Assembly: GCA_036268855.1 (NCBI GenBank)
Contig: DATATJ010000197.1
Span: 2,315 to 66,314, forward strand
Reading direction: 5' to 3'
Source: Vicinamibacterales bacterium
Lineage (GTDB): Bacteria; Acidobacteriota; Vicinamibacteria; Vicinamibacterales; CAVVIG01
Length of the DNA: 64,000 nucleotides
Part shown: in pieces, positions 10,720 through 48,687 of the stretch
Position numbering within the stretch: position 1 is the stretch's first letter
How the letters are laid out: each line of letters opens with the position of its first letter
Made by a program: the position numbers and the translations under genes
The notes under the pieces: model-generated
What the model was told of the DNA's origin: nothing
The model's input: the letters and a program-made list of their open reading frames with translations, nothing else
The model's database searches: none

Positions 10720-10738
10720 GAATGACCTCGCTGGATGG

Positions 10739-11917: not shown

Positions 11918-11945
11918 CCGGACGCCAACACACCGGAGGCCTGCT

Positions 11946-15050: not shown

Positions 15051-15057
15051 CGGACGC

Positions 15058-18038: not shown

Positions 18039-18050
18039 GACGGAAACCTC

Positions 18051-19385
18051 ATGGCTACTGAAACCACCAGAAAGACGATGACCGGCGACGAGATGATCGC
18101 GCTCTCGAAGCAGCACACGCTGTTCGAGTGGTCGGCGCAGTCGAAAGTGGATCCGATTCCGGTGGCGCGCGCCAAGGGCATTTACTTCTGGACGCCCGAA
18201 GGCAAGCGCTTCATCGACTTCAACAGCCAGCTGATGTGCGTGAACATCGGCCATGGCGACCAGCGTGTGAACCGCGCGATCCAGGAACAGCTTGACGCGT
18301 TCGCCTACGCCAACCCGTTCATGGCGACCGAACCGCGCGCGCGGCTCGGCGCCAAGCTCGCCGAGATCGCGCCGGGCGACATCGACGTGTTCTTCTTCAC
18401 CAACGGCGGGTCGGAGGCGAACGAGAACGCGATCAAGCTCGCGCGGCTCGCGACCGGGCGCCACAAGATCCTGGCGCGATACCGTTCGTATCATGGGGCG
18501 ACGGCCGGCAGCATCGCGCTGACCGGCGATCCGCGCCGATGGTCGGCGGAGCCCGGAATGCCGGGCGTCGTGCACGTGCTGGACCCGTACCACGGCATCG
18601 CGCGCGGGTGGGACAGCGCGGAGCAGTCGCTGGCCATGCTCGAGGAGGTGATTCAGCTGGAAGGAGCGCAGACGATCGCGGCCTTCATCCTGGAGTCGGT
18701 GACCGGGACCAACGGCGTGCTCGCGCCGCCCGACGGGTATATGCAGGGCGTGCGCGAGCTGTGCACGAAGCACGGCATCCTGATGATCTGCGACGAGGTG
18801 ATGGCCGGCTTCGGCCGCACCGGCAAGTGGTTCGCGATCGACCATTGGCAGGTCGTTCCGGACATCCTCACGATGGCGAAGGGGCTGACGAGCGCCTACA
18901 TCCCACTGGGCGCCGTCGGCATGCGGCGCGCGATCGCGAGCCAGTTCAAAGACAAGGTCTTCTACGGCGGCCTCACCTACAACAGCCATCCGCTCGCGTG
19001 TGCCGCCGCGCTCGCGACGATCGAGGTGTACGAGGAAGATCACCTGATCGAGAACGCGCAGCGCATGGGCGCGCTGATGAAGGACCTGCTCGTCGACCTC
19101 TCGCGGCGGCATCCGTCGGTTGGCGCCGCCCGTTCGATCGGGTTGTTCGGCCTCGTCGAGCTGGTGCGCGATCGCGCCCGGCAGACGCCGCTCGCGCCGT
19201 TCAACGGCACCTCCGACGAAATGGCCGCCCTCGGAAAGTTCTTCCGCCAGGAGGGGCTCTACACGTTCGTGCGCTGGAATACGTTCTTCACGAATCCGCC
19301 GCTGTGTATCACCGAGGCGGAGCTGCGCGAGGCGTTCGCGATCATCGATCGCGGGCTCGAGATCACGGACGGGGCGGTCGTATAG
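18051..19385 (+). CDS. class-III (omega) aminotransferase
   Basis: FFTNGGSEANENAIKLAR, ICDEVMAGFGRTGKWFA and ILTMAKGLTSAY (PLP lysine context). Confidence 0.9.
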   Translation: MATETTRKTMTGDEMIALSKQHTLFEWSAQSKVDPIPVARAKGIYFWTPEGKRFIDFNSQLMCVNIGHGDQRVNRAIQEQLDAFAYANPFMATEPRARLGAKLAEIAPGDIDVFFFTNGGSEANENAIKLARLATGRHKILARYRSYHGATAGSIALTGDPRRWSAEPGMPGVVHVLDPYHGIARGWDSAEQSLAMLEEVIQLEGAQTIAAFILESVTGTNGVLAPPDGYMQGVRELCTKHGILMICDEVMAGFGRTGKWFAIDHWQVVPDILTMAKGLTSAYIPLGAVGMRRAIASQFKDKVFYGGLTYNSHPLACAAALATIEVYEEDHLIENAQRMGALMKDLLVDLSRRHPSVGAARSIGLFGLVELVRDRARQTPLAPFNGTSDEMAALGKFFRQEGLYTFVRWNTFFTNPPLCITEAELREAFAIIDRGLEITDGAVV

Positions 19386-19473
19386 CGATCGCGTGATCGA
19401 GATGATCGGCGCTGATCTCGTAGAGCGCGCGAAGAAATACCTTCATCTCATTTCCGTGGTGAGCGTGATCGTT

Positions 19474-21123
19474 TCAACGCTCTGGGATTGAGCGCCCCGT
19501 GGCCGGTTTCGGCCGCCCCGACGCGTTGGCCACATCCCAGCTCGCCTGGTGGACCAGACGCGCGATTTTTTCCAGCTTCGCGTACTCGATCTTCTCGGGG
19601 CGGTCATAGACCGTGTGGTAGTCAGGATGCAGCCCCGTGAAGAACTCGACCGCGGGCACGCCGTGCTGGAGAAACGGCCACTGATCGCTGCGGCGAACGA
19701 GGTTCGACGGGTTGTTGTCGTAGGTGGTCCTCAGATCGAGGCCGACCGTCTTGTTGGCCGACTCGATCGGCGCGCGCAGATCCGGCGCCCACCGGAAGCC
19801 GCCGATGTTCACGACGTTCCGGTTCGCTTCCGCGGTCTGGGGCTCGAGGCCGTTGAACCGGGCGCCGCCGCCCATCGGCACTGCTTCGCTGCGCCCGATC
19901 ATGTCCATGTTCAGCACGCCCGCTACGGAGGCGAGCGGCGCGAGCGGCTGTTCCGTATACGCCCATGCGCCCAGCAGGCCGCGCTCCTCAGAATCCCATG
20001 CCGCGAACAGCACGCTCCGCTTCGGACGATGGCCCTGGCGCGCGGCCGCGGCGTAGGCGTCGGCAATCGCCAGCAGCGCGACCGTTCCCGATCCGTTGTC
20101 GTCGGCGCCGTTGAAGATCTGGCTGCCATCAGCGCCGTTGTGATCGTAGTGCGCCGACACGATCACCCATTCGTTCTTCAGCCGCGGGTCGCTCCCCTCG
20201 ACGAGCGCGACGACGTTGCGATCGGGCACCGTATGGCGATCGACCGCGGTGTACAGGTGCACGCGGAAGCCGGGCAGGGCGAGCGGCGCGATGCCGTGCG
20301 GCGATTCGGCCGTCTTCGACAGCGTTTCGAACGGCTTGCCCGCCCCGCGGACCAGCGTCGCCGCAAGCGCGGGCGAAATCTGCGCCACCGGGATGCGAAT
20401 CTGATCGGCCCATGCAGCGAGCGTATAGCTGGGGATCCGCGGCGGTGCCTCCGGCCAATAGGCGCGGGCCGACGCCTCGAAGTTGGGCGTACCCGGATGA
20501 TTGTGCACGTCGCTGACGAACAGCACGCCGACGGCGCCCTTCGCCTGGGCGGCGAGCGCCTTGCGCCATGCGGTCGACGGCTCGGCGGTGATCAGTCCTT
20601 CGAATGGGCTGTTGGGATCGCGTTCGCCGGGCTCGTGGTCGAGCGCCAGCACGATCTTGCCCGTCACGTCGCCGGCATAGTCGTCGTACTGGAGATAGGG
20701 CGCGCTGATGCCGAACCCGACGAACGCGAGCGGCGCCGTGACGTCGCCGCTGGCGCTGAACCGGTGCGGATAGAATTCCTGGCCCGCACGGAGATGCCGG
20801 GTGCCGGCGTCGTCGGATGCGACATCCATCGCATTGTCGTCGCCGAGAGCAGCCACCATCAGATTGAACGTCTGAAAGAACGAGTGGTCCGGACCCGCTG
20901 GAACGAGACCCGCCCGCTCGAACCGCGACCGGATGTAGTCGGCGGCGGCGCGATTCTCGTCCGTGTTGGTGAGCCGTCCGCGCATCGCGTCGCCGGCAAG
21001 AAAGAAGAGGTCGGCGCGCAGGTCCGCCTGGCGGATCGAGTCGTTCTGCGGCGCCGCCTGCTGCGCCGTCAGGGGTGCGATCGCCATCATCGCGATCACC
21101 GCCGCGCACACGCGTCTCAACAT
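19474..21123 (-). CDS. M28 family peptidase with PA domain, secreted
   Basis: Signal peptide MLRRVCAAVIAMMAIAPLTAQ. SAHYDHNG, GADDNGSGTVALLAIA and FAAWDSEERGLLGA. Confidence 0.85.
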   Translation of the reverse strand: MLRRVCAAVIAMMAIAPLTAQQAAPQNDSIRQADLRADLFFLAGDAMRGRLTNTDENRAAADYIRSRFERAGLVPAGPDHSFFQTFNLMVAALGDDNAMDVASDDAGTRHLRAGQEFYPHRFSASGDVTAPLAFVGFGISAPYLQYDDYAGDVTGKIVLALDHEPGERDPNSPFEGLITAEPSTAWRKALAAQAKGAVGVLFVSDVHNHPGTPNFEASARAYWPEAPPRIPSYTLAAWADQIRIPVAQISPALAATLVRGAGKPFETLSKTAESPHGIAPLALPGFRVHLYTAVDRHTVPDRNVVALVEGSDPRLKNEWVIVSAHYDHNGADGSQIFNGADDNGSGTVALLAIADAYAAAARQGHRPKRSVLFAAWDSEERGLLGAWAYTEQPLAPLASVAGVLNMDMIGRSEAVPMGGGARFNGLEPQTAEANRNVVNIGGFRWAPDLRAPIESANKTVGLDLRTTYDNNPSNLVRRSDQWPFLQHGVPAVEFFTGLHPDYHTVYDRPEKIEYAKLEKIARLVHQASWDVANASGRPKPATGRSIPER

Positions 21124-22663: not shown

Positions 22664-23130
22664 TGACGTTGTTTCTCGTCCATCACGGGGACGCCGTGAT
22701 GCCGGACGTCGACACGCGGCGTCCGCTCTCGCTGCGCGGACGCGAGGAGGTGACGCAGGTGGCGGCGCGGGCCGCCGCCATCGGCGCGAGGCCCGACGTC
22801 GTCTGGCACAGCGGCAAGCTGCGGGCGCGCCAGACCGCGGAGGAATTCTGGCGTGCGTGCAACGCCCTCGCCGAGCTGTCGGCGACGCGCGATCTGCAGC
22901 CCGCCGACCCGCCGGTCTGGATCCGCGACCGCCTGCGCGGCGAATCGCGCAACGTGATGATCGTCGGCCACTATCCGCATCTGCCCGATCTCCTCGCGCT
23001 GCTGACAGCCGCGCCGCCCGACGCCCATCCGCCGTTTCCCCAGCACGGCGTCGTCGCGCTGGAGTCGCTGGACGAGGGCGAGACGTGGAAGGAGATTTGG
23101 CGGGTGGAGCGGAGGGGAAGTGGGAAGTGA
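22663..23130 (+). CDS. SixA-like phosphohistidine phosphatase (histidine phosphatase superfamily)
   Basis: GTG at 22663 overlaps the DUF1684 stop by 1 nt. VTLFLVHHGDAV..RPLS..G..E..HSGKLRARQTAEE..VMIVGHYPHLPDL is collinear with SixA, but the RHG signature reads HHG. Confidence 0.7.
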   Translation: MTLFLVHHGDAVMPDVDTRRPLSLRGREEVTQVAARAAAIGARPDVVWHSGKLRARQTAEEFWRACNALAELSATRDLQPADPPVWIRDRLRGESRNVMIVGHYPHLPDLLALLTAAPPDAHPPFPQHGVVALESLDEGETWKEIWRVERRGSGK

Positions 23131-23158
23131 GAAGTTGGAAGGCAGAAGTTAGAAGTGA
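23117..23158. repeat. heptanucleotide purine-rich array (gaagtgg gaagtga gaagttg gaaggca gaagtta gaagtga)
   Basis: Read directly. The array begins in the last codons of the sixA-like CDS (stop 23128-23130) and extends into the convergent spacer. Confidence 0.9.
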
Positions 23159-23181
23159 AGGACGAAGTTCCTTCTGCCTTC
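23138..23181. terminator. candidate bidirectional terminator hairpin between convergent genes
   Basis: gaaggcagaag (23138-23148) is the exact reverse complement of cttctgccttc (23171-23181). That gives an 11-bp stem and a 22-nt loop. There is no clear U-tract. Confidence 0.4.
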
Positions 23182-23198
23182 TGCCTTGTAACTTGCGA

Positions 23199-27995: not shown

Positions 27996-29114
27996 GTGAG
28001 CGCCTCGCGCGATATCGTCGTCGTGGGCGCCGGCATTGTCGGGTGCGCCGTGGCCTACGAGCTGGCGCGTCGAGGCGCGTCAGTGGACGTGATCGACATG
28101 CGTGCGGCCGGCATGGGCGCGACCCAGGCGTCCGCCGGCGTCCTTGCTCCGTACATCGAGGCGACAGAGGGCAGCGCGCTGCTCGATTTGACGACGCGCA
28201 GCCTCGATCTGTTCGACGATTTTGTCGCGTCCGTTTCGATCGACAGCGCCGTCTCGATTCCCTATCGTCGAACCGGCACGCTGGATGTGGCGCTGGATGA
28301 GGCGGCCATGCGCGGCTTTCGCGCGACGGCCGAGCGGCTGGTGGGTCGCGGCGTCACCGCGGAGATCGTTGATCGCGCCGGCATTCACGAACAGGAACCG
28401 CATCTTGCCGACGGAGCCATCGGCGGCCTGTTGATACCGCAGCACGGCTATGTCTCGGCGCCTGAGTTGACGCGCGCGCTCGCCGTCGCATCGCGTCGGC
28501 GTGGAGCGCAGATCATCGAGCACGGGGCGGTGCGGGGCATTGCCCGCGACGGCGACGGCGTGACCGTCGAGACGGACCGCGGCTCGCTCATCGGCGATGC
28601 GGTCGTCCTGGCCGCAGGCAGCTGGTCCGCATCGATTGCCATCGACGGCGTTTCGCGGCGCATGCCGCTGCGCCCGGTCCGCGGCCAGCTGCTCCACCTC
28701 GGGTGGCAGGGCACACCGCTGCGTCGCGTCACGTGGTCGCCGCATTGCTATCTCGTGCCTTGGGACGACGGGACGCTGCTGGTTGGCGCAACGGCCGAGG
28801 AGGCGGGCTTTGACGAGCGGACGACGGCGGCCGGCGTGCGTGGACTGCTGGAGGCGGCGTGCACGCTGCTCCCGCACGCGTCGGGCGCGGCCTTTCTCGG
28901 CGCGCGAGTCGGGCTGCGTCCGGCGTCGAGCGATGGGTTGCCCATTCTCGGCGCGTCGCGCGTTATCCCGAATCTCATGTACGCGACCGGCCACTACCGC
29001 AATGGCATTCTGCTGGCGCCGCTGACGGCGAAGCTGGTCGCCGACGCGATGCTCGACGGCCGCATCGATCCGGTGCTGGCGAGCGTGAGCCCGCAGCGTT
29101 TCGGCGACTTATGA
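27996..29114 (+). CDS. thiO: glycine oxidase ThiO-like FAD-dependent oxidoreductase
   Basis: DIVVVGAGIVGCAVAYELARRG..V and the C-terminal ATGHYRNGILLAPLTA motif typical of ThiO. No thiS/thiG/thiE neighbours, so a general glycine or D-amino-acid oxidase role is equally possible. Confidence 0.7.
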   Translation: MSASRDIVVVGAGIVGCAVAYELARRGASVDVIDMRAAGMGATQASAGVLAPYIEATEGSALLDLTTRSLDLFDDFVASVSIDSAVSIPYRRTGTLDVALDEAAMRGFRATAERLVGRGVTAEIVDRAGIHEQEPHLADGAIGGLLIPQHGYVSAPELTRALAVASRRRGAQIIEHGAVRGIARDGDGVTVETDRGSLIGDAVVLAAGSWSASIAIDGVSRRMPLRPVRGQLLHLGWQGTPLRRVTWSPHCYLVPWDDGTLLVGATAEEAGFDERTTAAGVRGLLEAACTLLPHASGAAFLGARVGLRPASSDGLPILGASRVIPNLMYATGHYRNGILLAPLTAKLVADAMLDGRIDPVLASVSPQRFGDL

Positions 29115-29202
29115 TCGCGCCAGCAGGATCAGCGGCCAGAGACGTCGCGGCCGAGGAGCTCGCCGCACGTTTGCCGATGGCGGAAATGCCGCTGGGAAGA
29201 CG

Positions 29203-29565
29203 ATGAACGAGATCTCGATTGGCGCAGCGCGCTACCGGATCGTGACCGTCGGGCGCGACGGCCAGTGGGTTGCGCACGCGGAGCGCAGTGATAACGGCGA
29301 TCGGTTCGGCATCGAATGCGGCGGTGCGACCGAGGCCGAGGCGGTACAGCGGCTGCGCCACTGGCTCGAATGGCAGCACGAGCACGCCGAGGCGCTCGAC
29401 GCGCTGCAGACGGCCGAGCGCGCGTATCATCGCACCATCGCCGGGAGTGCGTTTGCGGATCCGACGGAAGGGCCGTCGCCGGTCGAGATGCAGAAGGACT
29501 CGCTGGATGCGGTCGAAGCCGCGCGCCTTCGTCTCGACGACGTTCGCGCGCGCAAGCCATGTTAG
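29203..29565 (+). CDS. hypothetical protein
   Basis: 120-aa ORF with coding-like composition in a co-directional string. No family recognised. Confidence 0.45.
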   Translation: MNEISIGAARYRIVTVGRDGQWVAHAERSDNGDRFGIECGGATEAEAVQRLRHWLEWQHEHAEALDALQTAERAYHRTIAGSAFADPTEGPSPVEMQKDSLDAVEAARLRLDDVRARKPC

Positions 29566-29599
29566 CACCACGAACCGTTGCGATTGGAGGGGTAGCAGC

Positions 29600-29884
29600 A
29601 TGCCGAAGCTGTCGTCGAAGGACGCGGAGCAGCGGCTCGAGTGTCTCGCCGGCTGGACGCTCGATCACGATGCGATTCGCCGCCAGTACACGTTCGCCGA
29701 TTTTCCCGGCGCGGTCGCGTTCGTGAACCGGCTTGTGCCGGGTGCCGAGCGCGCCGATCATCACCCGGACATTCTGATCAACTACAAACGCGTGACGCTG
29801 ACGTACTCGACGCACAGCGAAGGCGGGCTGACCGACAAGGATTTCGACGGCGCGGCAATGGCCGATCGCGCCGCGGAGGACTGA
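29600..29884 (+). CDS. 4a-hydroxytetrahydrobiopterin dehydratase (PCD/DCoH family)
   Basis: Internal ATG 29600 of ORF 29270..29884. MPKLSSKDAEQRLECLAGWTL..I.R.YTFADF..A.AFVNR....AE...HHPD....Y..V.L...TH..GGLT..D is the PCD signature (HHPD). Confidence 0.85.
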   Translation: MPKLSSKDAEQRLECLAGWTLDHDAIRRQYTFADFPGAVAFVNRLVPGAERADHHPDILINYKRVTLTYSTHSEGGLTDKDFDGAAMADRAAED

Positions 29885-29921
29885 CGCGACAGGCCGCGGT
29901 TCCGCGACACGCGTTGCCACG

Positions 29922-30407
29922 ATGAAGCTCAAGCGCACCTACTCGTCCCGCGAAGTGGCCGGACTGACCGGCCTCACGGCGCGGCAGCTGCAGCTGTGGG
30001 ACGCCGGCGGCCTGTTGTCGCCCGCGATTCCGTCGCATCGCACCGACGCGGGCGGTTACACGGAGCGCCGCTACTCGCCGATCGAGCTCTTCGAGCTGCT
30101 CGTGCTCGCCGATCTCCGGCGGCGCGGTTTCACCATCCAGCAGCTTCATGCCATTCTCACCGCGCTGGTCGAGCAGTTCGGCATTCGTCTGTTCGACGCC
30201 ACCGGCGGCGGCGGCGCCGTGCAGCTTCTGACCGACGGCCGCGAAATCTACGCGCGCACGGCGAGCGGTCAATTCTTCAATCTGCTGAAGACGCCGACGC
30301 AGCCGCTCCTGGCGATTGGCGACGAACAGCTGCTGCGGGAATTGAGCTCGTCGCTCCGGGGGCGAAAAAAAGTGAAGAGGAAGCGGAAGCTGCCGATCGC
30401 GGGATGA
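29922..30407 (+). CDS. MerR family transcriptional regulator with unassigned C-terminal domain and basic tail
   Basis: YSSREVAGLTGLTARQLQLWDAGGLL..RRYSPIELFELLVLADLRRRGFTIQQL is the MerR wHTH. The C-terminal tail is RGRKKVKRKRK. Confidence 0.8.
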   Translation: MKLKRTYSSREVAGLTGLTARQLQLWDAGGLLSPAIPSHRTDAGGYTERRYSPIELFELLVLADLRRRGFTIQQLHAILTALVEQFGIRLFDATGGGGAVQLLTDGREIYARTASGQFFNLLKTPTQPLLAIGDEQLLRELSSSLRGRKKVKRKRKLPIAG

Positions 30408-30426: not shown

Positions 30427-30723
30427 TCAGCCGATGGGGAAGATCTTTTCCAGCCCGTCGGCCGGCCGTGGAATCACGTGAACGCCCACCAGCTGTCCGA
30501 CACGGCGCGCCGCGGCCGCGCCGGCGTCGGTGGCAGCTTTCACCGATCCGACGTCGCCGCGAACGATGGCGGTGACCATCCCCGCGTCGACCTTCTGCCA
30601 GCCGACGAACACGACGTTGGCCGCTTTTACCATCGCGTCAGCAGCTTCGATCATGCCGACCAGGCCGATGGTCTCGATCATGCCCAGCGCGTCGCCGAGC
30701 TCGCGTTTGTCCTTGTCAGCCAT
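30427..30723 (-). CDS. bacterial microcompartment shell protein, BMC-H (single Pfam00936-type domain)
   Basis: Internal ATG (CAT 30721-30723). [98 protein letters not shown] matches the PduA/EutM/CcmK consensus. I verified the 3' end directly on the DNA. Confidence 0.9.
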
Positions 30724-30790
30724 GTGAATACGGTCGCCACGCATTGCATGGCGCGATGACCCGGGTGTGACTATATCCCAAAAGGCGCGG

Positions 30791-31906
30791 TTACGTGATT
30801 CGCCCGCGGGCCGCGACCGGCAGCGTGTCGATGACGCGATCGCCCTCGACCAGGCGCACGGCATCCATCAGATTCGAGACGACGCAGGAATGGTTCGGCA
30901 GGACGCGCACGCGATCGCCCGGCTCGAGGCGGGTTGTGCCGGCCACTCGAACGGTCGCGTGCTCTTCGGACAGTCGATCGATGGTCAGCGTGTCGTCCAC
31001 GCCGCCGTCCGCGGTCAGCACGGCGCCGTACCCCTCGGCCTTGGTGATGCCGCGCGCCTGATCGTTGGTGAGCGTCTTGCTCCCGCAGTCGAGAATGATC
31101 CGATCCGGCGCAGGCTTGGAGACGACGGTGGCCAGAATGGTGAGCGCGCAATCGTCGAGCGCCGCGCTGCCGAGCGACACCTGCGTGCGGTCGAAATAGA
31201 CGTAGTTACCGGGCCGCATCTCGGAAATCCCGCGCTGGCGGACGCTGAAGCGCAGCGTGGGCGTCGCGCCGACCGAAATCTCTTCGAGCGAAAGACCCGC
31301 CGCCGCGGCGCGGTCGCGCAGCGCCGTCAGCGTGGCGGCCTCCTGCGTGGCGATGGCATTCAGCGCGTCCTCCGACGAGGCGTGGTACGCGTGGCCGGCG
31401 TGGCTCAGCAGCCCGCGCAGGCGGAGCCCAGGCATGGCGGCGATGGCGGTCAGGAACGCGAGCGGATCGCCGCGATCGGGGTCGATCCCACACCGGTGAA
31501 ATCCGACATCCACCTTCACCAGCACGTCGAGCGTGCGGCCGGCGCGCTCCATGGCCTCCGACCATCCGTGCGCGACCGCCAGATGATCCACGATGATCGA
31601 GATCGCGGCGCGGTCCATCAGCGCCAACATGCGCGAAGCGTTGGCCGGGTTCACCGGGTAGGGCAGCCGGATGTCGCGGATGCCCGCCTCGGCGAACACT
31701 TCGGCTTCACCGACCTTCGCACAGCAGATGCCGATGGCGCCCCGCTCGATCTGCCAGGCCGCGACGGTCGGCGACTTGTGTGTTTTCGCATGAGGCCGCA
31801 GCCGAATCCCTGCGGCCGACGCGAGCGCCTGCACGCGGTCGATGTTGCGCCGCGCTCGCGCGTGATCGATCAGAACTTGAGGCGTGGGGAGATCAGAGAG
31901 AAGCAT
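30791..31906 (-). CDS. D-TA family PLP-dependent enzyme (D-threonine aldolase / DSD1 D-serine dehydratase-like, alanine-racemase fold)
   Basis: LPTPQVLID......NI.R......[15 protein letters not shown] (PLP lysine in AKTHK), [17 protein letters not shown] and a C-terminal beta domain. Start at ATG (CAT 31904-31906). The longer track ORF reads into the word repeat. Confidence 0.85.
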
Positions 31907-31998
31907 CGGAATGGTGAGCTCTCTAGTTGGCCAATTAGTAAGTTGGTGAGTTGGTAATTGCAGCTGACGCACTTGAATCTTAATTTACCAACCGTCAT

Positions 31999-32046
31999 TT
32001 ACCAACTTACCAACTTACCAACTTACCAATCTACCAACTCACCAAT
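31999..32046. repeat. octanucleotide tandem array (ttaccaac x3, ttaccaat, ctaccaac, tcaccaat), 48 bp, in a low-G+C spacer
   Basis: Read directly. There is one more ttaccaac at 31985-31992. Reverse-complement words gttggtga/gttggtaa lie at 31942-31957. ttggtgagttggta (31943-31956) is a perfect 14-bp inverted repeat of taccaactcaccaa (32032-32045). Confidence 0.95.
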
Positions 32047-32061
32047 TCAGCGAGCGGGCTG

Positions 32062-36014: not shown

Positions 36015-36048
36015 AGTGATGCGGGCCACCGAGGCACGGAGATGATCT

Positions 36049-36281
36049 GCCACAGAGCCACTGAGTCACCGAGAAGGCTCTTCTCGATGTTACCGATGGA
36101 ACGTTTGCCACAGAGCCACGGAGTCACCGAGAAGGCTCTTCTCGATGTTACCGATGGAACGTTTGCCACAGAGCCACGGAGTCACCGAGAAGGCTGTTCT
36201 CGATGTTACCGATGGAACGTTTGCCACAGAGCCACGGAGTCACCGAGAAGCCTCTTCTCGATGTCACCGGCGGGAAGGTTT
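36049..36281. repeat. 58-bp minisatellite, 4 head-to-tail copies
   Basis: The unit is gccacagagccacggagtcaccgagaaggctcttctcgatgttaccgatggaacgttt. Copies start at 36049, 36107, 36165 and 36223. Copies 1 and 3 each differ from copy 2 by one base. Copy 4 is 59 bp and diverged in its 3' half. A degenerate fifth copy lies near 36421. Each unit carries the stem cgagaag/cttctcg with a GCT loop. Confidence 0.95.
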
Positions 36282-36282
36282 G

Positions 36283-36362
36283 CCACAGAGCCACAGAGCC
36301 ACAGAGCCACAGAGCCACGGAGACACCGAGACACCGAGATACCGAGATACCGAGACACCGAG
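36283..36362. repeat. octanucleotide word array, 10 units (ccacagag x4, ccacggag, acaccgag x2, ataccgag x2, acaccgag)
   Basis: Read directly. It abuts the minisatellite, whose first 25 nt are built from the same words. Confidence 0.95.
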
Positions 36363-36553: not shown

Positions 36554-38254
36554 TCACGAGCCACTCGACAGCTTCAAATCGAGCGGCTTGGTCTCCGCTT
36601 CGCCCAGCGAGAAGGTCCTCGCCCCGCTCCGCAGCGAGTTCAGGAAGTCGGGGTCGCCGATCTTCGCCGCGTCGATGTGCGCGAGTGCGACGGCGACGTA
36701 ATCGCCAGGCGGCAGGCCCGCGACCGTGAAGCGTCCGTCCTGATCCGGCCGCCCGATCTTGATGTATCGCGCGGCGTTGCTCCACAGGCTCTGATCCTGC
36801 GGAAAGATCAGCGCCGTGTAGTCGTGGGCCGCATCGCCGTGCGCGTCGGTGACGCGACCGACGATCGACGTCAACCGGCCCGTGAGCTCCACGTCCACAC
36901 CGCCGACGTCCTCACCCGGCTTGATGTCGATGCCGCTGTCGGTGACGTCCACGCCCCCGAGGCGCACCGCGCGCACATTCCACCCCGTCGGGAGGTTGAA
37001 CACCCTGACGCGCTTGACCCCCGGTCCCGATTTCAGCGCGAACGTGTTGTCGTCGAGAACCTTCCCCGGGCCCAGCCCCAAGAAAGACATCGTGGCGTCC
37101 GGACTCGTCGATTCCATCACCACCGACAGTGCATTGGTGGCGAGCGGCTGACCGGGATCGACGACGATTCGCCCGGTGACCGACACGGCCCTGGAGGCCA
37201 CGAGTCGAAGGTCTGCGATGTCCGCGCCGGCGACCGTGAGGTTCATGACGGCCGCCTCCTCGGTGAGCGGACGCGGTACGCCCTGCAAAATGTACTCGCC
37301 CGGCGTGAGATTGCGAGCCACGAATGAGCCGTCGGGACGAATCTGGACGCCGGCCGCCGAGTTCGTCCCCCCTGCTATCCTCTTGCCTACCATGAGGACG
37401 CCCACCATCGGCTGGCCGTGGCTGTCGACCACCGTGCCGCTGATGCTTGCGGTTGTCGTCGGCGACATCATGATGGTCACGTCGCTGACCGTCGTGCCGA
37501 TGCCCACGGCAATGCGCTGTGCCTCGGCCTCCTGCGTCGTCGCCGGAAAATACGTAGGTGCGTAGCCGACGCCATCGTCGGCGGCTCCGACCGCGCCCGG
37601 AAATTTTCGCCAGACGGCCTGGACGACGTAGTCGCCCGGCTGAAGTCCGAAGAGCCGGAACTCGCCGAGGTCGTCGGTCAAGACCATGCGACCGGAGGGC
37701 ATCAGCTGGCGCCGTCCGCCGATCGTTTGCGATCGCAGGGCCGCGACCTGCAGGTTCGACAAGGGCTCTCCGTATTCGTCCAGGGCGCGTCCGCGTACGA
37801 CGCTGCCGCGCGGCAGCGAAAAGTCGATCCGCTCCAGCGTCTGGTCGTCTTGCACCGTGAGCGTCGTGCCCCCCTCGAAGGGATGCGTTTGTCCGTACGA
37901 GAGTCCGATGTACGGGCTCTTCGACGCCGTCAGCGTGTAGCGGCCGGCGGGTAGTTCGCGGAATTCGTAGGCGCCATTCGCATCCGTCATCGTGACGTGA
38001 TTCGTGCTGCCGCCCACCGTGCCGCCGGAGACGCCGCCGCGGCCGTCCATCGGCATCAAAATCAACCGCGCCTGACGCAGCGGCTGACCCGTGTCGCCCG
38101 CCAGCACGTGTCCCCGAAGCACCGCGGTCGCGTGCGCGGGTTGCGTCGTCGTCGCCGGTGGCCCTGGCGGCGAGCCCGCCGATGAGCTCACTTGCGCGCG
38201 AGCGGCGGCCGCGACGAGCAGCAGCGCGGCGACAAGCGATGTGATCGTGCGCAT
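36554..38254 (-). CDS. secreted multi-domain carboxypeptidase-regulatory-like (CarboxypepD_reg) protein
   Basis: Internal ATG (CAT 38252-38254) gives MRTITSLVAALLLVAAAARAQ, a signal peptide. Repeated G.V.D..G.P......V........DG.F....L.PG.Y modules. Confidence 0.8.
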   Translation of the reverse strand: MRTITSLVAALLLVAAAARAQVSSSAGSPPGPPATTTQPAHATAVLRGHVLAGDTGQPLRQARLILMPMDGRGGVSGGTVGGSTNHVTMTDANGAYEFRELPAGRYTLTASKSPYIGLSYGQTHPFEGGTTLTVQDDQTLERIDFSLPRGSVVRGRALDEYGEPLSNLQVAALRSQTIGGRRQLMPSGRMVLTDDLGEFRLFGLQPGDYVVQAVWRKFPGAVGAADDGVGYAPTYFPATTQEAEAQRIAVGIGTTVSDVTIMMSPTTTASISGTVVDSHGQPMVGVLMVGKRIAGGTNSAAGVQIRPDGSFVARNLTPGEYILQGVPRPLTEEAAVMNLTVAGADIADLRLVASRAVSVTGRIVVDPGQPLATNALSVVMESTSPDATMSFLGLGPGKVLDDNTFALKSGPGVKRVRVFNLPTGWNVRAVRLGGVDVTDSGIDIKPGEDVGGVDVELTGRLTSIVGRVTDAHGDAAHDYTALIFPQDQSLWSNAARYIKIGRPDQDGRFTVAGLPPGDYVAVALAHIDAAKIGDPDFLNSLRSGARTFSLGEAETKPLDLKLSSGS

Positions 38255-38267
38255 CTTCACCTCGACG

Positions 38268-39932
38268 TCAGCGTGCGGCCACAGCGGCGAGTTCGAGCGC
38301 GATCGCCTTCTTCTCGTCGAGCCGGATAGACACCGCGGTTGCGCGATCGCGAATCCGCGCGAGGTACGCGGGGTCCGTCCACTCGCCGGGCTCGACATCC
38401 GCGGTGGCAAAGACGAAATAGTCACCCGCCGGCACGAGCACGCGGAATGTTTCATCCGCGGCGGGGCGACCGACGGCAACGTGCCGCGTCTGCGCCGTCC
38501 ATCGCGTGGCGTCCTGTGCGAAGACGATCACGTAGCAATCGCGGACCGGCTGACCGTTGGCGTCCACGACCTGGCCGGACAGCTCGCTCACGTGGTGCGT
38601 CATCTCGACCACGATGTTCGAGATCGTCGCATTGGGCGGCACGTCGATCCCGGTGTCGGTGATGTCCACGCCGGCGGCGAGGACACGGTTCAGCCGCCAC
38701 TTCGGGCCCGGATTGGGCGTGCGAATCAGAAAATGCCCCGCGGCCAGTTTGATCTCGAACGTGAGGTCCTCATGCACCTTGACGTTGACGTTACTGATCG
38801 ACGGGGCGTTGTTGCTCGCATTCAAATGCACGTCCGACGCCTTGAGGGGCGTCGCGCCCGGCTCAAAGACGATCCGGCCGCGGAGCACCGATGGAGGCGC
38901 CGTCACCAGCTGCAGGCCGGATACCTCCATGCCATTCACCGACACCGGCGCGTTGGCCGACTCGCCATCGGCGCGGCCGGAAACCCGCAGTATGAAATCG
39001 CCTGGCGTCACGCCGTTGATCGTGAACGTGCCATCAGGCCCCAGCGGCGCGCCGCTTCCGCCGACTGACATCCCGCCAACCTGTCGAAGGAGATTCACGA
39101 AGCCCGTCGTCACCGCACGCCCTTTGGAGTCGATCACCGAACCGCTGAGGCGTGTCGGCTGGACGGCGACAAGCGGCAGCGTGACGCCGCTGACCACCTG
39201 CCCGGCACCGACCGTGAGACGCTGCGCTTCGGCGACGTTCGCCGTTCCCGGATAGAACGTCGGCGAATAGGCGACCGAGATGCCGCTCGCGTTGAATACG
39301 AAATCGGGAAGCGTGCCGGCGACGAAGTAATCGCCGGGCGGCAGCCCGAACGCCCGAAACTCGCCGATGTCATTCGTGACGGCGTAACCCTGCGCGCGAA
39401 CGAGCCGGCGATCGCCGTTCGCGAACTGATACCGCATTGTCGTCACTTGCGCGTCCGGAACGGGATCGCCGAATTCATCGACGACTGTGCCTGCGATGAC
39501 GCCGGCATGCGACAGGGCGAAGTCCACCTTGTCGGCCGTCTGGCCGTCGGACAGGTCGAACCCTTTGCCGGGTCCCATGGCACGCATCGCGCCGAACGAC
39601 GTGGTGAGGTAGTTGGTCTTGCTGGCCGCCACGACGTACCGGCCGGCCGGGAGGCCGCTCACTTCGTAACGCCCGTTTGCATCGGTCTTGACGGCGCGCG
39701 GCTGGGGAAGGACGGAGGAGCCGACCCGAATATCAACGCGCGCGATTGGACGTCCAGTGCCCGCTTCGTGCACCCGACCGCGGATCATGCCGGTGCCGGC
39801 GGTCGGATGCGCGGAGGTGTCCCGCGCAGGCGCCTGCGTCTGCGCCGTTCCGCCCTCGGCGAGAGGAACGGAAGGCGCCGCAGCGGACGCCACGAAAGCC
39901 ACGAGGAAGATGAGCACTCGCGACACGGGCAT
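38268..39932 (-). CDS. secreted multi-domain CarboxypepD_reg protein, collinear paralog of 36554..38254
   Basis: MPVSRVLIFLVAFVASAAA is a signal peptide. MIRGRVHEAGTGRPIARVDI..TDANGRYEVSGLPAGRYVV and further modules. Lies 13 bp upstream of its paralog. Confidence 0.8.
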   Translation of the reverse strand: MPVSRVLIFLVAFVASAAAPSVPLAEGGTAQTQAPARDTSAHPTAGTGMIRGRVHEAGTGRPIARVDIRVGSSVLPQPRAVKTDANGRYEVSGLPAGRYVVAASKTNYLTTSFGAMRAMGPGKGFDLSDGQTADKVDFALSHAGVIAGTVVDEFGDPVPDAQVTTMRYQFANGDRRLVRAQGYAVTNDIGEFRAFGLPPGDYFVAGTLPDFVFNASGISVAYSPTFYPGTANVAEAQRLTVGAGQVVSGVTLPLVAVQPTRLSGSVIDSKGRAVTTGFVNLLRQVGGMSVGGSGAPLGPDGTFTINGVTPGDFILRVSGRADGESANAPVSVNGMEVSGLQLVTAPPSVLRGRIVFEPGATPLKASDVHLNASNNAPSISNVNVKVHEDLTFEIKLAAGHFLIRTPNPGPKWRLNRVLAAGVDITDTGIDVPPNATISNIVVEMTHHVSELSGQVVDANGQPVRDCYVIVFAQDATRWTAQTRHVAVGRPAADETFRVLVPAGDYFVFATADVEPGEWTDPAYLARIRDRATAVSIRLDEKKAIALELAAVAAR

Positions 39933-39944
39933 TTCTTGAACGTG

Positions 39945-42900
39945 CTATTTCGCGTCCAGTTTTCTTCCGGCGTTCAGCTGATCGAAGTTCAGAATCGCGT
40001 TGAACACGAGGAAGTAGCTTCCTTGCGTCTCACCGCGCCAGATCGGATTGTTCGAGAACACGACGATGTGTCCCTTCTCGAGCGGCACATCCACGACGGC
40101 CGCGTGCTGCGCGATCTCGTTGCCTCCTTCGACGAGCCCCGAGACGAGCAGATCTTTGTTGTCAGCGTAACGCAGAATCACGCGCGGCCGCGCGGCTGGC
40201 GGGATCACGTTGATCGCGTTCCGCAACTGCTCGTCGGTGACCGGCACGGCCTGCCACAGCTCCACTTTCGGTTCGGCGGGAATGTCCTCGACGGTGCGCC
40301 CCTGCGGTTCGTCCGGATCGTCCACAGTCCCCCGCCCGGTCGGCCGTTCGCCCATCTCGCCGCCGAGGCGCCGCCCACCGCCGCCCGCGTACGAGTTGCT
40401 GACGTTGAAAATCGGACCGCTGCCCTGCCAGAGCCCGAGATTGTCGGTGTAGCCGTATGCGATCGGGCTCGTGCTGTCGACCATCTTCGATCGCACGACG
40501 CTGCCGACGATGCGGAGGCGGTTCGCGCGCGCGATCGACAGGCCCGGGGTGAAGCCGCTCGAGACGGCGAGGTCGGCGGTGTCCATCGCCGTCACCAGCA
40601 GGCCGCCCTTGCGAACGAACTCCTGCAGGTGCGCGACGCCGGTCCAGCCCAGGCCTGGACGCATGTCGTCCGTTTGATCCTCGGCGCCGAGGTTTGGCGT
40701 GTCCGCCGTCCTCTTCCATGGCAGCGCGTTGCCGTTCATCGGCATGCCGCTGACGATGCCTTGCGGATTGCGGCCGACGGGCGGAAAGACGATCACGTCG
40801 AACCTGGCGCTCAAGTCGGAGTCTTTGGCTACCTGCTGCGTGTTCAGGTACGTGTACGGCACCTGTGCGTCCTCGAACGCATGACGCCACCAGCCTTCGT
40901 CCTGCGTGCTGAGCCATGTGTGCAGGAGCGCGACGCGCGCGGCGCGTACCGGATGCGTCTTCACGGATGGCGCCGAGGCCACCGCGACGATCGGGAGGCC
41001 GAGGTCGCTCGTGGCGCTCTGCATGTCGGCGGCCGAGACGTTCGCGATGACGAACGAGCCGCGGTTGAACTTCTTGCCGCCGATCTCGAACGGCTCTTCC
41101 GCGGCGTCGATCGACGCGCCCTTGAGCCGGTAGCGCAGCGTGGCCAGTGCCGTGTCGGCGTTGTGGTTCGCCACGAATATCGAGCCGGTGCCGGTGACGC
41201 CGCCCCTGGCGCGCACCTCGCCGCTGACGCGCTCCATGGGTGCGTCGAGCACCTTCAGATCGAGGACGCGCGTCGCCTGCACGTTGTACAGCTCGGGGAA
41301 CGTCCAACCGGTGTCGTCGTACGGCGTCTTCTGGGGATCGTTCGGACTCCAGTACTGATAGTCGAGCAGCGAATCGGCGATGCGGCTGTACGGCTGATCC
41401 ATGCGGACGATGTACGAGCCGGCGGGGAACGTTTTGGTCGTCGGCGCATCTTTCGCGTCCTTCCGGTCGGCCGACGGCTTCGCGGCGCTTTGATCGGCCG
41501 CGGGCCCAGACGGTTTGTCTCGTCCCTCGTGTCCCTCCTGCGCCTCCGTCGTCGTCGTCGGACGCGTCGGCGCTTTCTTGTGCGGCAGCATCACGGTGAA
41601 CGGAGCAGTCGCGCGTGAGATCTCGACGCCTTGTTTCTGCAGCGTGCGCAGCAGCTCGGCCTGCGCCCCGGCCCGCGGATCGTCCCCTGACAGGACGTAC
41701 GCCGCCGGCCCTTCCGTCTTCGGCTTCTGGATCGAGCGCTTGCTCTTCAGGTAGAAGTTTCGGAGGAAGAGCTTGTTGTTGGCGGCGAAGTAATGCAGGG
41801 ACGTGAGCAGGCCGGTCTCTTCGTAGTTGTTGTTGTCGCGCTGCGACCACTGCGTCTTCGCCAGCGGCGGGTTCTGCTTGTACCAGGTCCGCGCGTATTC
41901 GTCGGGCCGCAGTGTCCGCTCCACGGTATCGGCGCCGCCGTTGCCGAACGTTTCGTACAGCCGGCTGATGCCGTTGTGCAGCGCCGCGATGAACATCAGA
42001 TAGCCGGGCGACCAGGTGTCGAAGTTGCCGTGCGCGAACACGCCGGGCATGCCGAACTTCGTCATCTCCGAGACGTTGTTCCAGCCGATCATCTGCCACT
42101 CGTCGGCGAGAATCGGGTCGATCCACGCGTTGTACGGACCGTCGCCGATCGTGTTGTCATAGAGATACGGCACCGACTCGTGCAGATCGTGCAGCACCTG
42201 CGGGTGCCACTGAAGGTAGGTGTTCATCACGTTCTCGGTGAGCTTGAGCGTGACGCCCATCGCATCGCGGTTGTTGTCGTGCGCGACGTACTTGCCCCAG
42301 TACACGAGCGGCTGGACGTTCTGGCCCGGGTGCGCGAGGTGCCACTTGTAGACGTCCACCATCTTGTCGCGGCCGTCCACTTCGACCACCGGCGTGATCA
42401 GGGTGATGAGGTTGTTCCGCACCGACTTGATGTAGTCGTGATCATCCACGATTAGCCGGTAGGCGAGCTCCATCAACGCCGTGGGCGCGCCGGTTTCGGG
42501 CGAATGAATCGTCCCGGTGATGTAATAGATCGGCGTCGTCGCCGCGACGAGCGCCTCCGCCTGTGCATCGTTCATGTCGATCGTGCGCGGATCGGCGAGC
42601 TTCGCCAGGCGCGCCTTGTTCTCGTCGAGCTTCGCCATGTTGGCGTCCGACGAGATCGCCACCGCGATCATCTCGCGGCCCTCTTCCGTCTTGCCGATCG
42701 AGTAGACCTTCACCCGCTGCGGCGCCGCCTTCTCCAGCATCCGCATGTACCGGTAGACCTCTTCGGCATACGGCAGCTTTCCGGGCGCTCCGGCCACATC
42801 GCCGAGCACCGCCTTTGGCGTCGGCACGGTCTTCGAGGCCGGCAGGTAGTCCACCAGCGGCGACGTGAAGTACGGCTCGGTGGTGTATTCCTTGATCTTG

Positions 42901-43079
42901 TTCGTGTACTCCTGATCGAGCGGGATTTTCGGATCGCGGACGAACGTCTGGAGCGGCATCGGCTGCGGTTTCGCCTGCTGGGCCGTGAGCGGAGCTTCGA
43001 AAAACAGCGCGGCGAGCGCGCCAGCGAGCGCAGCGGCTGCGCCCCGCGCGGCGATGCGCGCGAAGAGAGAATTCATCAT
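39945..43079 (-). CDS. large secreted M14 family zinc carboxypeptidase-like protein with long C-terminal extension
   Basis: MMNSLFARIAARGAAAALAGALAALF is a signal peptide. GTIHSPETG (HxxE zinc motif), AHDNNRD and HDLHES. Low-complexity insert KKAPTRPTTTTEAQEGHEGRDKPSGPAADQSAAKPSADRKDAKDAPTTK. About 450 C-terminal residues are unassigned. Confidence 0.8.
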   Translation of the reverse strand: MMNSLFARIAARGAAAALAGALAALFFEAPLTAQQAKPQPMPLQTFVRDPKIPLDQEYTNKIKEYTTEPYFTSPLVDYLPASKTVPTPKAVLGDVAGAPGKLPYAEEVYRYMRMLEKAAPQRVKVYSIGKTEEGREMIAVAISSDANMAKLDENKARLAKLADPRTIDMNDAQAEALVAATTPIYYITGTIHSPETGAPTALMELAYRLIVDDHDYIKSVRNNLITLITPVVEVDGRDKMVDVYKWHLAHPGQNVQPLVYWGKYVAHDNNRDAMGVTLKLTENVMNTYLQWHPQVLHDLHESVPYLYDNTIGDGPYNAWIDPILADEWQMIGWNNVSEMTKFGMPGVFAHGNFDTWSPGYLMFIAALHNGISRLYETFGNGGADTVERTLRPDEYARTWYKQNPPLAKTQWSQRDNNNYEETGLLTSLHYFAANNKLFLRNFYLKSKRSIQKPKTEGPAAYVLSGDDPRAGAQAELLRTLQKQGVEISRATAPFTVMLPHKKAPTRPTTTTEAQEGHEGRDKPSGPAADQSAAKPSADRKDAKDAPTTKTFPAGSYIVRMDQPYSRIADSLLDYQYWSPNDPQKTPYDDTGWTFPELYNVQATRVLDLKVLDAPMERVSGEVRARGGVTGTGSIFVANHNADTALATLRYRLKGASIDAAEEPFEIGGKKFNRGSFVIANVSAADMQSATSDLGLPIVAVASAPSVKTHPVRAARVALLHTWLSTQDEGWWRHAFEDAQVPYTYLNTQQVAKDSDLSARFDVIVFPPVGRNPQGIVSGMPMNGNALPWKRTADTPNLGAEDQTDDMRPGLGWTGVAHLQEFVRKGGLLVTAMDTADLAVSSGFTPGLSIARANRLRIVGSVVRSKMVDSTSPIAYGYTDNLGLWQGSGPIFNVSNSYAGGGGRRLGGEMGERPTGRGTVDDPDEPQGRTVEDIPAEPKVELWQAVPVTDEQLRNAINVIPPAARPRVILRYADNKDLLVSGLVEGGNEIAQHAAVVDVPLEKGHIVVFSNNPIWRGETQGSYFLVFNAILNFDQLNAGRKLDAK

Positions 43080-43110
43080 GGTGGGTGATCTTAATGCTAT
43101 CGTGATTTGC

Positions 43111-44553
43111 ATGCGCGAACTTTCATCCGGCCTCGTCGTTCTCGTGGTGCTACTGGCGGGCGGCGCCGTTCGCGCGCAGCCGGGCGACGCTGGAGCGCTG
43201 GCCGACATCGACGCGAAGCGCGCCCACTACGCGGACGTCGCCCATCAGATCTGGGGCTTCGCCGAAGTGGGCTACCAGGAGCAAAAGAGCAGCGCGCTCC
43301 TGCAGGCGGAATTGAAGGCGGCCGGATTCGACGTCAAGGCCGGCGTCGCCGACATCCCGACGGCGTTCGTCGCGACGTTTGGAGCGGGCAAGCCGGTCGT
43401 CGCGATCGTCGGCGAATTCGACGCACTGCCCGGGCTGTCGCAGCAGGCATCCGAGCCCTCGCGCAAGCCGATCGTGGCGGAAGGCCCTGGACACGGCTGC
43501 GGCCACAACCTGCTCGGCACGGGCGCGCTCGCAGCCGCCGTCGCCGTCAAGGACTGGCTCGCTTCGAGCCGGCACGCCGGAACCGTTCGCTACTACGGCA
43601 CGCCGGCGGAAGAAGGCGGATCCGGCAAGGTCTTCATGGTGCGCGCCGGGCTCTTCAAGGACGTGGACACGGTCGTCACCTGGCATCCGGGCGATCGCAA
43701 CGACGCCAGCCCTGCCAGCTCGCTCGCGAACATCAACGCGAAGTTCCGGTTTCACGGCATCGCCTCCCACGCGGCGGTGGCGCCGGAAAAAGGGCGTTCC
43801 GCGCTCGACGCCGTGGAGGCGATGGACTATATGGTGAACATGATGCGCGAGCACGTGCCGCAGGAGACGCGCATCCACTACATCATCACGCGCGGCGGTG
43901 CGGCGCCGAACATCGTCCCCGACTTCGCCGAGGCGTATTACTACGCGCGCGAGCCCGACATGCGCATTCTGGACGGCATCTGGGACCGCATCGTTGAAGC
44001 CGCCAAAGGCGCGGCGCTCGGAACCGGGACGACCATGGAGCTCGAGCTGGTGGGCGCGGTCTATAACGTGCTGCCGAACGTGTATCTCAGCGGGCTCATG
44101 CACAAGAACCTCGAGCGGGTCGGCGGATTCTCGTACACGCCGGAGGAGCAGGCGTTCGCCGAGCAGGTGCGCAAGACGCTGGCCGAAGAGCCGACGACGC
44201 CGCTCGGATCGGAGGCGCAGGTACAGCCGACGCGCCTCGGGGTCGTGGGCAGTGCGTCCACCGATCTCGCGGACGTGAGCTGGAACGTGCCGACCGTGTC
44301 GATGACCGCGGCGACGTTCGTCCCGGGCGTGCCGACGCACAGCTGGCAGGCGACGGCGTGCGCGGGCGGCACGATCGGCGTGAAGGGGATGATCGTTGCG
44401 GCGAAATCGATGGCGCTGACCGCGATCGATCTGTTCTCCGATCCGTCGCACATCGAGAAGGCGCGCGCCGAGTTCGAGCAGAAGCGCGGTCCGAACTTCG
44501 TCTACAAGACCCGGCTCGCCGATCGGAAGCCGGCGCTCGATTATCGTAAATGA
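43111..44553 (+). CDS. M20D-type amidohydrolase (AbgB / aminobenzoyl-glutamate hydrolase subunit B-like), secreted
   Basis: ATG 43111 gives MRELSSGLVVLVVLLAGGAVRAQ, a signal peptide. IWGFAEVGYQE..S and IVGEFDALPGLSQ....GHGCGHNLLG. Confidence 0.8.
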   Translation: MRELSSGLVVLVVLLAGGAVRAQPGDAGALADIDAKRAHYADVAHQIWGFAEVGYQEQKSSALLQAELKAAGFDVKAGVADIPTAFVATFGAGKPVVAIVGEFDALPGLSQQASEPSRKPIVAEGPGHGCGHNLLGTGALAAAVAVKDWLASSRHAGTVRYYGTPAEEGGSGKVFMVRAGLFKDVDTVVTWHPGDRNDASPASSLANINAKFRFHGIASHAAVAPEKGRSALDAVEAMDYMVNMMREHVPQETRIHYIITRGGAAPNIVPDFAEAYYYAREPDMRILDGIWDRIVEAAKGAALGTGTTMELELVGAVYNVLPNVYLSGLMHKNLERVGGFSYTPEEQAFAEQVRKTLAEEPTTPLGSEAQVQPTRLGVVGSASTDLADVSWNVPTVSMTAATFVPGVPTHSWQATACAGGTIGVKGMIVAAKSMALTAIDLFSDPSHIEKARAEFEQKRGPNFVYKTRLADRKPALDYRK

Positions 44554-46927: not shown

Positions 46928-47010
46928 ATCACGAAATCACGAAGAACGCGGAGACTGTGTTTTGTGCAGAACGTCCTTCGTGAACTTCGTGATCTCCGTG
47001 CCTTCGTGAT
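46928..47010. repeat. inverted word repeats (atcacgaa x2 forward; cttcgtga(t) x3 reverse)
   Basis: atcacgaag (46936-46944) is the reverse complement of cttcgtgat at 46985-46993 and at 47002-47010. Lies in the spacer between the two CrtI-family paralogs. Confidence 0.85.
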
Positions 47011-48635: not shown

Positions 48636-48687
48636 GGGTGCCGGGGTGCCGGGGTGCCAGGTGCCAGGGTGCTAGGTGCTGGGTGCT
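48636..48687. repeat. 7-8-nt G-rich word array (gggtgcc ggggtgcc ggggtgcc aggtgcc agggtgct aggtgct gggtgct)
   Basis: Read directly. It starts 7 nt outside the start codon of the oxidoreductase gene (48629), in a divergent spacer. Confidence 0.95.

Follow-up and report, generated by a model that had tools for sequence, protein, structure and literature searches.

Among bacterial microcompartments (BMCs), the ACI type is restricted to Acidobacteria, chiefly those of subdivisions 4 and 6 (PMC8217296). Its main locus comprises genes for a class II aldolase bearing an encapsulation peptide at its C terminus and a 2-hydroxyacid dehydrogenase, a triplet of BMC-P genes and at least one BMC-H gene, and the aldehyde dehydrogenase is encoded separately, on a satellite locus (PMC8217296). 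Lone BMC-H satellites are already catalogued for ACI genomes (Sutter et al. 2021, PMC8217296, Supplementary Data 2), and the same catalogue proposes permeability tuning, as for CcmK3 and CcmK4, as a general role of satellite shell genes (PMC8217296). Here we describe a BMC-H gene that stands alone in 64,000 nucleotides of DNA from a Vicinamibacterales bacterium (contig DATATJ010000197.1; this whole stretch is called the window, and positions refer to it unless a relative is named). The host order corresponds to Acidobacteria subdivision 6 and falls within the main host range of ACI compartments. The lone gene is a further member of the catalogued satellite kind, with a distinctive acidic pore, and its product is probably a satellite subunit of an ACI-type metabolosome whose main locus lies elsewhere in the genome. 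It shares with the catalogued satellites (PMC8217296) the phylum and subdivision 6, a position 'by itself' far from a main locus and 'mostly standard interaction motifs', and main loci of its relatives show the gene order that defines ACI (aldolase, BMC-H, three BMC-P, 2-hydroxyacid dehydrogenase). It differs in a pore aspartate, a PRPA motif and a −10-like upstream element, none of which is mentioned in the portion of the catalogue text available to us.

The assignment of the reading frame to BMC-H, proposed in a preliminary description made from the letters alone, could have failed against the PF00936 profile hidden Markov model (HMM). It scored 95.2 bits (gathering cut-off 24.5), with profile positions 1–75 of 75 aligned to residues 12–87. 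The closest solved relatives are a tandem fusion of the Haliangium BMC-H (HO BMC-H; 1e-58) and PduA (3e-33); EutM also aligns, and the alignment of the lone protein with PduA, EutM and the Haliangium BMC-H is collinear. An identical protein has been deposited under the accession HEX3703705.1 ('BMC domain-containing protein [Vicinamibacterales bacterium]') and is also encoded on a 70-kb JGI soil contig.

Relatives were gathered by scanning a genome collection and metagenomes, taking the best 80 loci of each, and they split cleanly into lone copies and main-locus copies. Lone copies numbered at least 57 among the matches listed (L001–L013 and L082–L125) and were 77–96% identical to the window gene; no BMC-P gene was found beside them on the flanks examined, which extended up to 10 kb per side and were often much shorter in metagenome contigs. 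The remaining loci were 61–77% identical, and most were ordered aldolase (PF00596), BMC-H, three BMC-P and 2-hydroxyacid dehydrogenase. When the 13 syntenic orthologues are set aside, 67 loci of the genome collection are left; 51 of these have the aldolase gene immediately upstream and two or more BMC-P genes downstream. The order aldolase–BMC-H–BMC-P also holds for most metagenome loci that do not belong to the lone clade, with the 2-hydroxyacid dehydrogenase gene present where the contig extends far enough. Nearly all of the closest loci came from metagenome-assembled genomes (MAGs) of Vicinamibacterales or Acidobacteriota; one, L006, is labelled Bifidobacteriaceae. The lone clade received 97 of 100 bootstraps in a tree that included 15 of its members (14 genome copies, the window gene included, and L023), and its members are about 88% identical among themselves and about 74% identical to main-locus BMC-H proteins. 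The lone gene and its 57 lone relatives form a distinct paralogue group. Two metagenome proteins, P0003 (162 aa, on a 655-nt ENA contig) and P0001 (161 aa), topped the match lists of both groups; P0003 scored 287 bits against the main-locus query, where one BMC domain gives about 180, which suggests that both are double BMC-H calls, fused or chimeric, from very short contigs.

The lone BMC-H gene is functional and under strong purifying selection. Its reading frame was unbroken in all 58 copies examined, and the median pairwise dN/dS among lone orthologues was 0.06 at a dS of about 0.9, that is, at near-saturated synonymous divergence, which marks a constrained, functional gene. A pseudogene was rejected on this ratio. 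Isolation from every other shell gene is what one would expect of a functionless, decaying remnant of a lost microcompartment locus, but the intact frames, the low dN/dS and the conservation of both clade-specific residues and an upstream motif make such a remnant scarcely credible.

The tie between this clade and the ACI metabolosome is most direct in a relative. In the MAG DASWVN01, a lone copy (L010, 89% identical) occurs together with an ACI main locus (L045, aldolase–BMC-H–BMC-P). Their contigs agree closely in GC content (66.2% and 66.5%) and in tetranucleotide usage (correlation 0.984, ranking 1–2 of 70). Of the three uses that the preliminary description had left open for the gene (a satellite of a locus elsewhere, a new minimal D-hydroxy-amino-acid compartment, and a role of BMC-H outside any compartment), the first is now favoured by this co-occurrence, by the ACI-rich order in which the gene is found and by the lone ACI satellites of the catalogue. 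The observation that neighbouring genes vary while the lone BMC-H persists also speaks for it. The earlier idea of a new system was to fall if a complete locus existed elsewhere and the gene's association with its upstream neighbour were not conserved; what we found is a main locus in a relative only, and an adjacency that is common and not obligatory.

Several observations weigh against the satellite reading. The main locus in the window's own genome is assumed, as our view is limited to 64 kb and the co-occurrence was seen in a relative. The matches listed show a main locus in just one of the 13 lone-copy genomes, a count that says little either way. A lone copy and a main locus were not found together on one contig when the longest contigs of the 120 best clusters of each were compared by length. 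Identity of the lone clade with the catalogue's 'H_marine' was not confirmed, the supplement text available giving no usable entry. The missing His of the PRPH motif could weaken tiling. Finally, locus L014 (positions 6876–11287 of its contig) keeps a main-type BMC-H (EKIGAGY, PRPH) at the main-locus position, with PGM and PdxJ genes upstream, and no aldolase, BMC-P or 2-hydroxyacid dehydrogenase gene was found within 10 kb; it may be a decayed main locus retaining only its hexamer gene. A BMC-H gene can therefore persist after the rest of its locus is gone.

Such retention, after loss of the neighbouring shell and enzyme genes, is also what a lone BMC-H acting without a closed compartment would call for, as sheets, tubes or a scaffold in genomes perhaps free of BMC-P. 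BMC-P was found neither in the 64 kb here nor within 10 kb of either side in the 13 relatives, the matches listed show a main locus for one of these 13 genomes alone, and the PRPA motif together with a charged, variable N-terminal tail could suit another kind of assembly. Set against this are the main locus in DASWVN01, the restriction of the clade (among the matches listed) to an ACI-rich lineage, the catalogue's placement of lone Acidobacteria BMC-H genes in consolidated ACI loci, and the retained tiling Lys and Arg. We consider a role outside any compartment unlikely.

None of the other parts of a metabolosome was found in the window itself. Searches with tblastn using EutN, PduN and CcmL detected no BMC-P gene or second BMC domain in the 64 kb; most of the other loci examined did yield BMC-P genes to the same queries, usually three together. 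Profiles built from 173 BMC-P and 84 BMC-H sequences gave chance-level matches only against all six-frame window reading frames (best BMC-P, E = 0.27). Compared with Pfam, the majority of the likely genes in the window, together with the central 20 kb, gave no match to PF06130, PF00596 or PF03319. These comparisons and NCBIfam scans of most likely genes returned peptidases, amino-acid catabolic enzymes and two ordinary aldehyde dehydrogenases (PF00171), neither of the BMC type and the betaine-aldehyde-dehydrogenase-like one free of extensions. The features by which a classical metabolosome main locus is recognized were accordingly not found among the genes scanned: PF03319, PF06130 and PF00596 have no match, and the PF00171 genes are ordinary. 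The claim that the 64 kb lacks BMC-P, a second BMC domain and, among the genes scanned, phosphotransacylase thus held up. The preliminary description named an aldehyde dehydrogenase core as a need of classical metabolosomes, and on this point it needs qualifying, since two PF00171 genes are present, though not BMC-type ones. A satellite in the sense of the catalogue is a shell gene distal from BMC-P, and this describes both the window gene and its 13 orthologues, in which no BMC-P lies within 10 kb of either side.

The lone BMC-H departs from its canonical relatives at the pore. The hairpin reads K-V-D-A-G, compared with K-I-G-S-G in PduA and K-I-G-A/S-G in ACI main-locus BMC-H proteins, so that the small, uncharged hairpin (G-S/A/G-G) of canonical hexamers is not present. 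The 14 orthologues examined all retain the aspartate, Asp46, whether by a GAC or a GAT codon, and it occurs in 44 of 44 metagenome relatives among the matches listed. Among 200 BMC domains of the 150 best representatives from a library of 1.8 billion proteins, Asp at this position was confined to the lone clade. One clade member in that library, P0308, has Glu in its place (KVEAG), along with IARPA, consistent with selection for negative charge and not for Asp itself. The G-S-G hairpin forms the constriction of canonical BMC-H pores, which draw anions (PMC10514305); judged from the sequence, six pore Asp residues would be expected to invert this preference.

Two further loci carry an Asp hairpin in Pyrinomonadaceae-like DNA. 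In L160 (42–3482 of its contig), which is of lower GC (57%) and Pyrinomonadaceae-like, genes for an unknown 160-aa protein, BMC-P, an ACT-domain protein, DUF711 and a BMC-H with an EKIDAGL pore follow in this order. This locus, with BMC-P nearby, ties an Asp-pore BMC-H to satellite shell genes. In L017 (160–1416 of its contig), also Pyrinomonadaceae-like and of 57% GC, an EKIDAGL-pore BMC-H gene lies directly 3' of a DUF711 gene. This satellite arrangement is not among the layouts in the part of the catalogue's ACI description available to us.

The motifs of hexamer tiling are kept in part. The edge lysine and the IPRP arginine, both noted in the preliminary description, are present as K33 (in VKAAN) and R86. 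The edge-lysine motif, as defined in PMC8217296, is KAAN in the lone clade; in main-locus copies it is KAAK in Vicinamibacterales and KAAN in Pyrinomonadaceae. The interface motif is PRPH in every main-locus copy and PRP(A/S/V/G) across the lone clade. The protein agrees with PduA, EutM and HO BMC-H in fold, length, collinearity (3e-33 to 1e-58) and the edge Lys and Arg, and differs from them in that they have an anion-binding G-S/A-G hairpin (PMC10514305), PRPH and full operons, whereas here the first Gly is Asp and the motif is PRPA. The label 'textbook' BMC-H suits the full PF00936 domain, but two residues depart from it: the PRPH His and the leading Gly of the pore hairpin are both substituted.

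We propose that the paralogue acts on an ACI shell encoded elsewhere in the genome, by a presumed main locus that joins three BMC-P genes and a basal BMC-H gene to those for a class II aldolase and a 2-hydroxyacid dehydrogenase (PF00389/PF02826). The Lys of KAAN and the Arg of PRP would allow its hexamers to tile into shell facets. Each subunit would contribute one Asp to the hairpin of the central pore, giving six per hexamer at a site where canonical hexamers have Gly and attract anions. By analogy with CcmK3 and CcmK4, the paralogue may insert into ACI facets as homo- or mixed hexamers, altering shell traffic. CcmK3 and CcmK4 of the β-carboxysome are likewise BMC-H paralogues; their genes lie apart from the main locus under separate regulation, and the proteins have been proposed as permeability tuners (refs 35 and 36 of PMC8217296). 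They differ in belonging to an anabolic carboxysome, in being a gene pair and in forming documented heterohexamers, whereas the present gene is single, would serve a catabolic metabolosome, and its heterohexamers are conjecture.

Expression of the paralogue may also be its own. A −10-like hexamer, TATAGT, lies upstream of its start codon (Table 1). The pattern TA[GT]A[ACG]T was found within 130 nt upstream of the conserved N terminus in 35 of 53 lone-copy loci, compared with 1.5% of control windows. It was present regardless of the identity of the upstream gene, often preceded by TGG and often 10–15 nt from the ATG. TATAGT probably serves as the promoter of the BMC-H gene, from which, as an element that appears to move with the gene, the paralogue would be transcribed alone. 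A generic scan for sigma-70 promoters and terminators made no call between the upstream gene and BMC-H, TATAGT included. The 5' leader of the BMC-H gene folds no better than shuffled sequence (z = −0.47), and Rfam returned no riboswitch.

The gene directly upstream encodes an enzyme of the D-threonine aldolase (D-TA)/D-serine dehydratase (DSD) family that depends on pyridoxal 5'-phosphate (PLP). The BMC-H ATG lies 67 nt 3' of its stop codon on the same strand, and the BMC-H stop lies 19 nt from that of a convergent MerR-like gene; both gaps given in the preliminary description follow from the coordinates. Its assignment to the D-TA/DSD1 family also stands: both family domains are present (Table 1), and the PLP lysine occurs in an HxKT context, RPHAKTHK aligning with RPHVKTSK of 3wqc. 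Its activity is less certain. Among solved structures the enzyme is closest to D-threo-3-hydroxyaspartate dehydratase (3wqc, 6e-52), which yields oxaloacetate and no aldehyde, followed by D-threonine aldolase (4v15, 4e-47). No NCBIfam equivalog was reached (BhcC, 172.8 bits against a cut-off of 690). Residues 5–359 of the 371 align with 17–381 of the 390-aa 3wqc, and the alignment with 4v15 reaches residue 368, leaving no room for an encapsulation peptide; accordingly, no extension of the roughly 15–20 residues typical of such peptides was seen at either end in alignments to solved homologues, including the encapsulation helix for which the earlier description had proposed to look.

In relatives the association of the two genes is facultative. 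Across 46 informative loci, the D-TA gene was adjacent, upstream and on the same strand in 26, at times only 10–40 nt away; it was separated from BMC-H by another gene in 4, inverted in 2 and absent in 14. Where it was absent, the upstream gene encoded a DUF1501, DinB or CarboxypepD_reg protein, a MacB/FtsX permease, or was hypothetical or unidentified. BMC-H remained 77–90% identical in the 20 loci that lacked an adjacent, same-strand D-TA gene. The synteny that the earlier description had proposed to test is thus fairly common without being obligatory.

Both genes belong to an eight-gene block that is itself syntenic: DUF1800, DUF1501, D-TA and BMC-H on one strand and, on the opposite strand, genes for MerR, pterin dehydratase, a hypothetical protein and ThiO. 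In 29 of 50 informative loci the MerR-like gene was the immediate convergent neighbour of BMC-H, which occupies the most rearranged junction of the block. The block is a syntenic neighbourhood of unrelated genes, and the D-TA/BMC-H adjacency therefore reflects its shared ancestry. The opposite-strand genes, from ThiO to MerR-like, form a tight array (27996–30407), parts of which recur 3' of BMC-H in most related loci that reach so far. A D-amino-acid theme linking the D-TA gene to the nearby flavin-dependent oxidase was tried and rejected, the oxidase being the thiamin-pathway ThiO above its equivalog cut-off.

These data bear on whether D-TA and BMC-H act together as a functional module, be it as a minimal D-hydroxy-amino-acid compartment or as an extension of ACI to a new substrate in the manner of EUT modules. 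In the latter case, the amino acid would enter through the acidic pore, and acetaldehyde from the aldolase would feed the ACI aldehyde dehydrogenase. The two genes share a strand, are closely spaced with no terminator-like site between them, and are adjacent in more than half of the informative loci; satellite modules of enzyme plus shell gene are documented in other BMC types. The EUT-module satellites (EutABC with EutL) of HO and SPU BMCs also place an enzyme gene beside a shell gene far from the main locus, suggesting substrate extension. They differ from the present pair, in which the pairing is facultative, the enzyme is without a targeting extension and its reaction is uncertain. A module is further disfavoured by the persistence of BMC-H where D-TA is missing or displaced, by the synteny of the whole block, by the dehydratase as best solved relative and by the promoter-like motif between the two genes; and because there is no BMC-P here, the locus cannot build a closed shell. 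We regard a functional module as very unlikely. The earlier proposal that an aldehyde-releasing enzyme beside a shell protein fits a logic of aldehyde sequestration depends on a presumed activity and a facultative adjacency, and a new minimal compartment is not supported. Literature searches linking threonine aldolase, or Vicinamibacter, to microcompartments returned nothing relevant.

A bolder possibility joins the pore, the promoter and the neighbour. The KVDAG paralogue could represent a class of shell hexamer whose six-carboxylate pore ring passes cations and zwitterions and excludes anions, which is produced when needed from its own promoter and which teams up with a D-hydroxy-amino-acid PLP enzyme in roughly half of the lineages, so that the two extend ACI to a new, nitrogen-containing substrate. 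In a radical variant, this hexamer would assemble without pentamers in genomes that have lost them. We hold this proposal, its variant included, to be decidedly unlikely as a whole, and retain as the preferred reading a satellite subunit of an ACI shell.

Table 1. Coordinates of the lone BMC-H gene, its motifs and other features of the window
Feature	Position	Strand	Remarks
Lone BMC-H shell gene	30427..30723	−	98 aa; one non-permuted PF00936 domain; member of a Vicinamibacterales-specific paralogue clade
Interface motif P85-R86-P87-A88	30460..30471	−	(P/A)RPH motif; Arg kept, His replaced by Ala
Asp46 codon (GAC)	30586..30588	−	Replaces the first Gly of the pore hairpin (PduA G39); from alignments
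Edge-lysine tiling motif KAAN (K33-A-A-N36)	30616..30627	−	Read from sequence
−10-like hexamer TATAGT	30770..30775	−	46 nt 5' of the BMC-H ATG; putative own promoter
Fold-type-III PLP enzyme, D-TA/D-serine dehydratase/D-3-hydroxyaspartate family	30791..31906	−	371 aa; PF01168 and PF14031; context, probably outside the system
MerR-like helix-turn-helix gene	29922..30407	+	PF13411; convergent with BMC-H; last gene of the (+) array; context only
Pterin-4a-carbinolamine dehydratase	29582-29884	+	NF002017
Hypothetical gene	29203-29565	+	120 aa; between ThiO and pterin-4a-carbinolamine dehydratase
ThiO glycine oxidase	27996-29114	+	TIGR02352, 293 bits (cut-off 250.8)
PF00171 aldehyde dehydrogenases	51345-53030 and 58731-60200		One is a 1-pyrroline-5-carboxylate (P5C) dehydrogenase (TIGR01236, 794 bits); the other is betaine-aldehyde-dehydrogenase-like

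Beyond the block, the neighbourhood of the lone gene is given over to peptide and amino-acid catabolism. Peptidase genes are concentrated at 8819–21123 and 36554–44553 (two S58/DmpA, two to three M20, two M28 and one M14). Alongside them the window encodes CarboxypepD_reg proteins, a TonB-type outer-membrane barrel, an aminotransferase, a PLP decarboxylase, GcvT and P5C dehydrogenase.

Intergenic repeats recur through the window. Between the DUF1501 stop and the D-TA start (31912–32053), six tandem octamers TTACCAAC stand opposite a complementary array of the GTTGGTAA type. As RNA, this TTACCAAC/GTTGGTAA region would form a long hairpin (−69 kcal/mol, z = −8.2 against shuffles); Rfam returned only sub-threshold matches to miRNA hairpins for 31913–32043. 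Tandem arrays of 7–8-nt units, often in inverted pairs and with a unit that differs from site to site, occur at 9878–9929, 23115–23187, 36048–36362, 46928–47009, 48636–48687 and 53046–53097. At 36048–36306, a 58-nt unit is repeated 4.4 times and is followed by 9.9 copies of CACCGAGA. Similar arrays lie upstream of BMC-H in L001, L013, L083, L088, L106 and L122. Taken together, they resemble a class of hairpin elements that lie between genes across the lineage.

Acidobacteria rank with the most abundant bacteria of soils. A lone shell gene beside an enzyme that looks aldehyde-releasing is no evidence of a new compartment where the lineage has a catalogued main locus. The acidic-pore paralogue would offer a natural design for engineered cation-permeable shells, and a separately transcribed paralogue with inverted pore charge would provide a handle on what crosses the ACI shell, and when.

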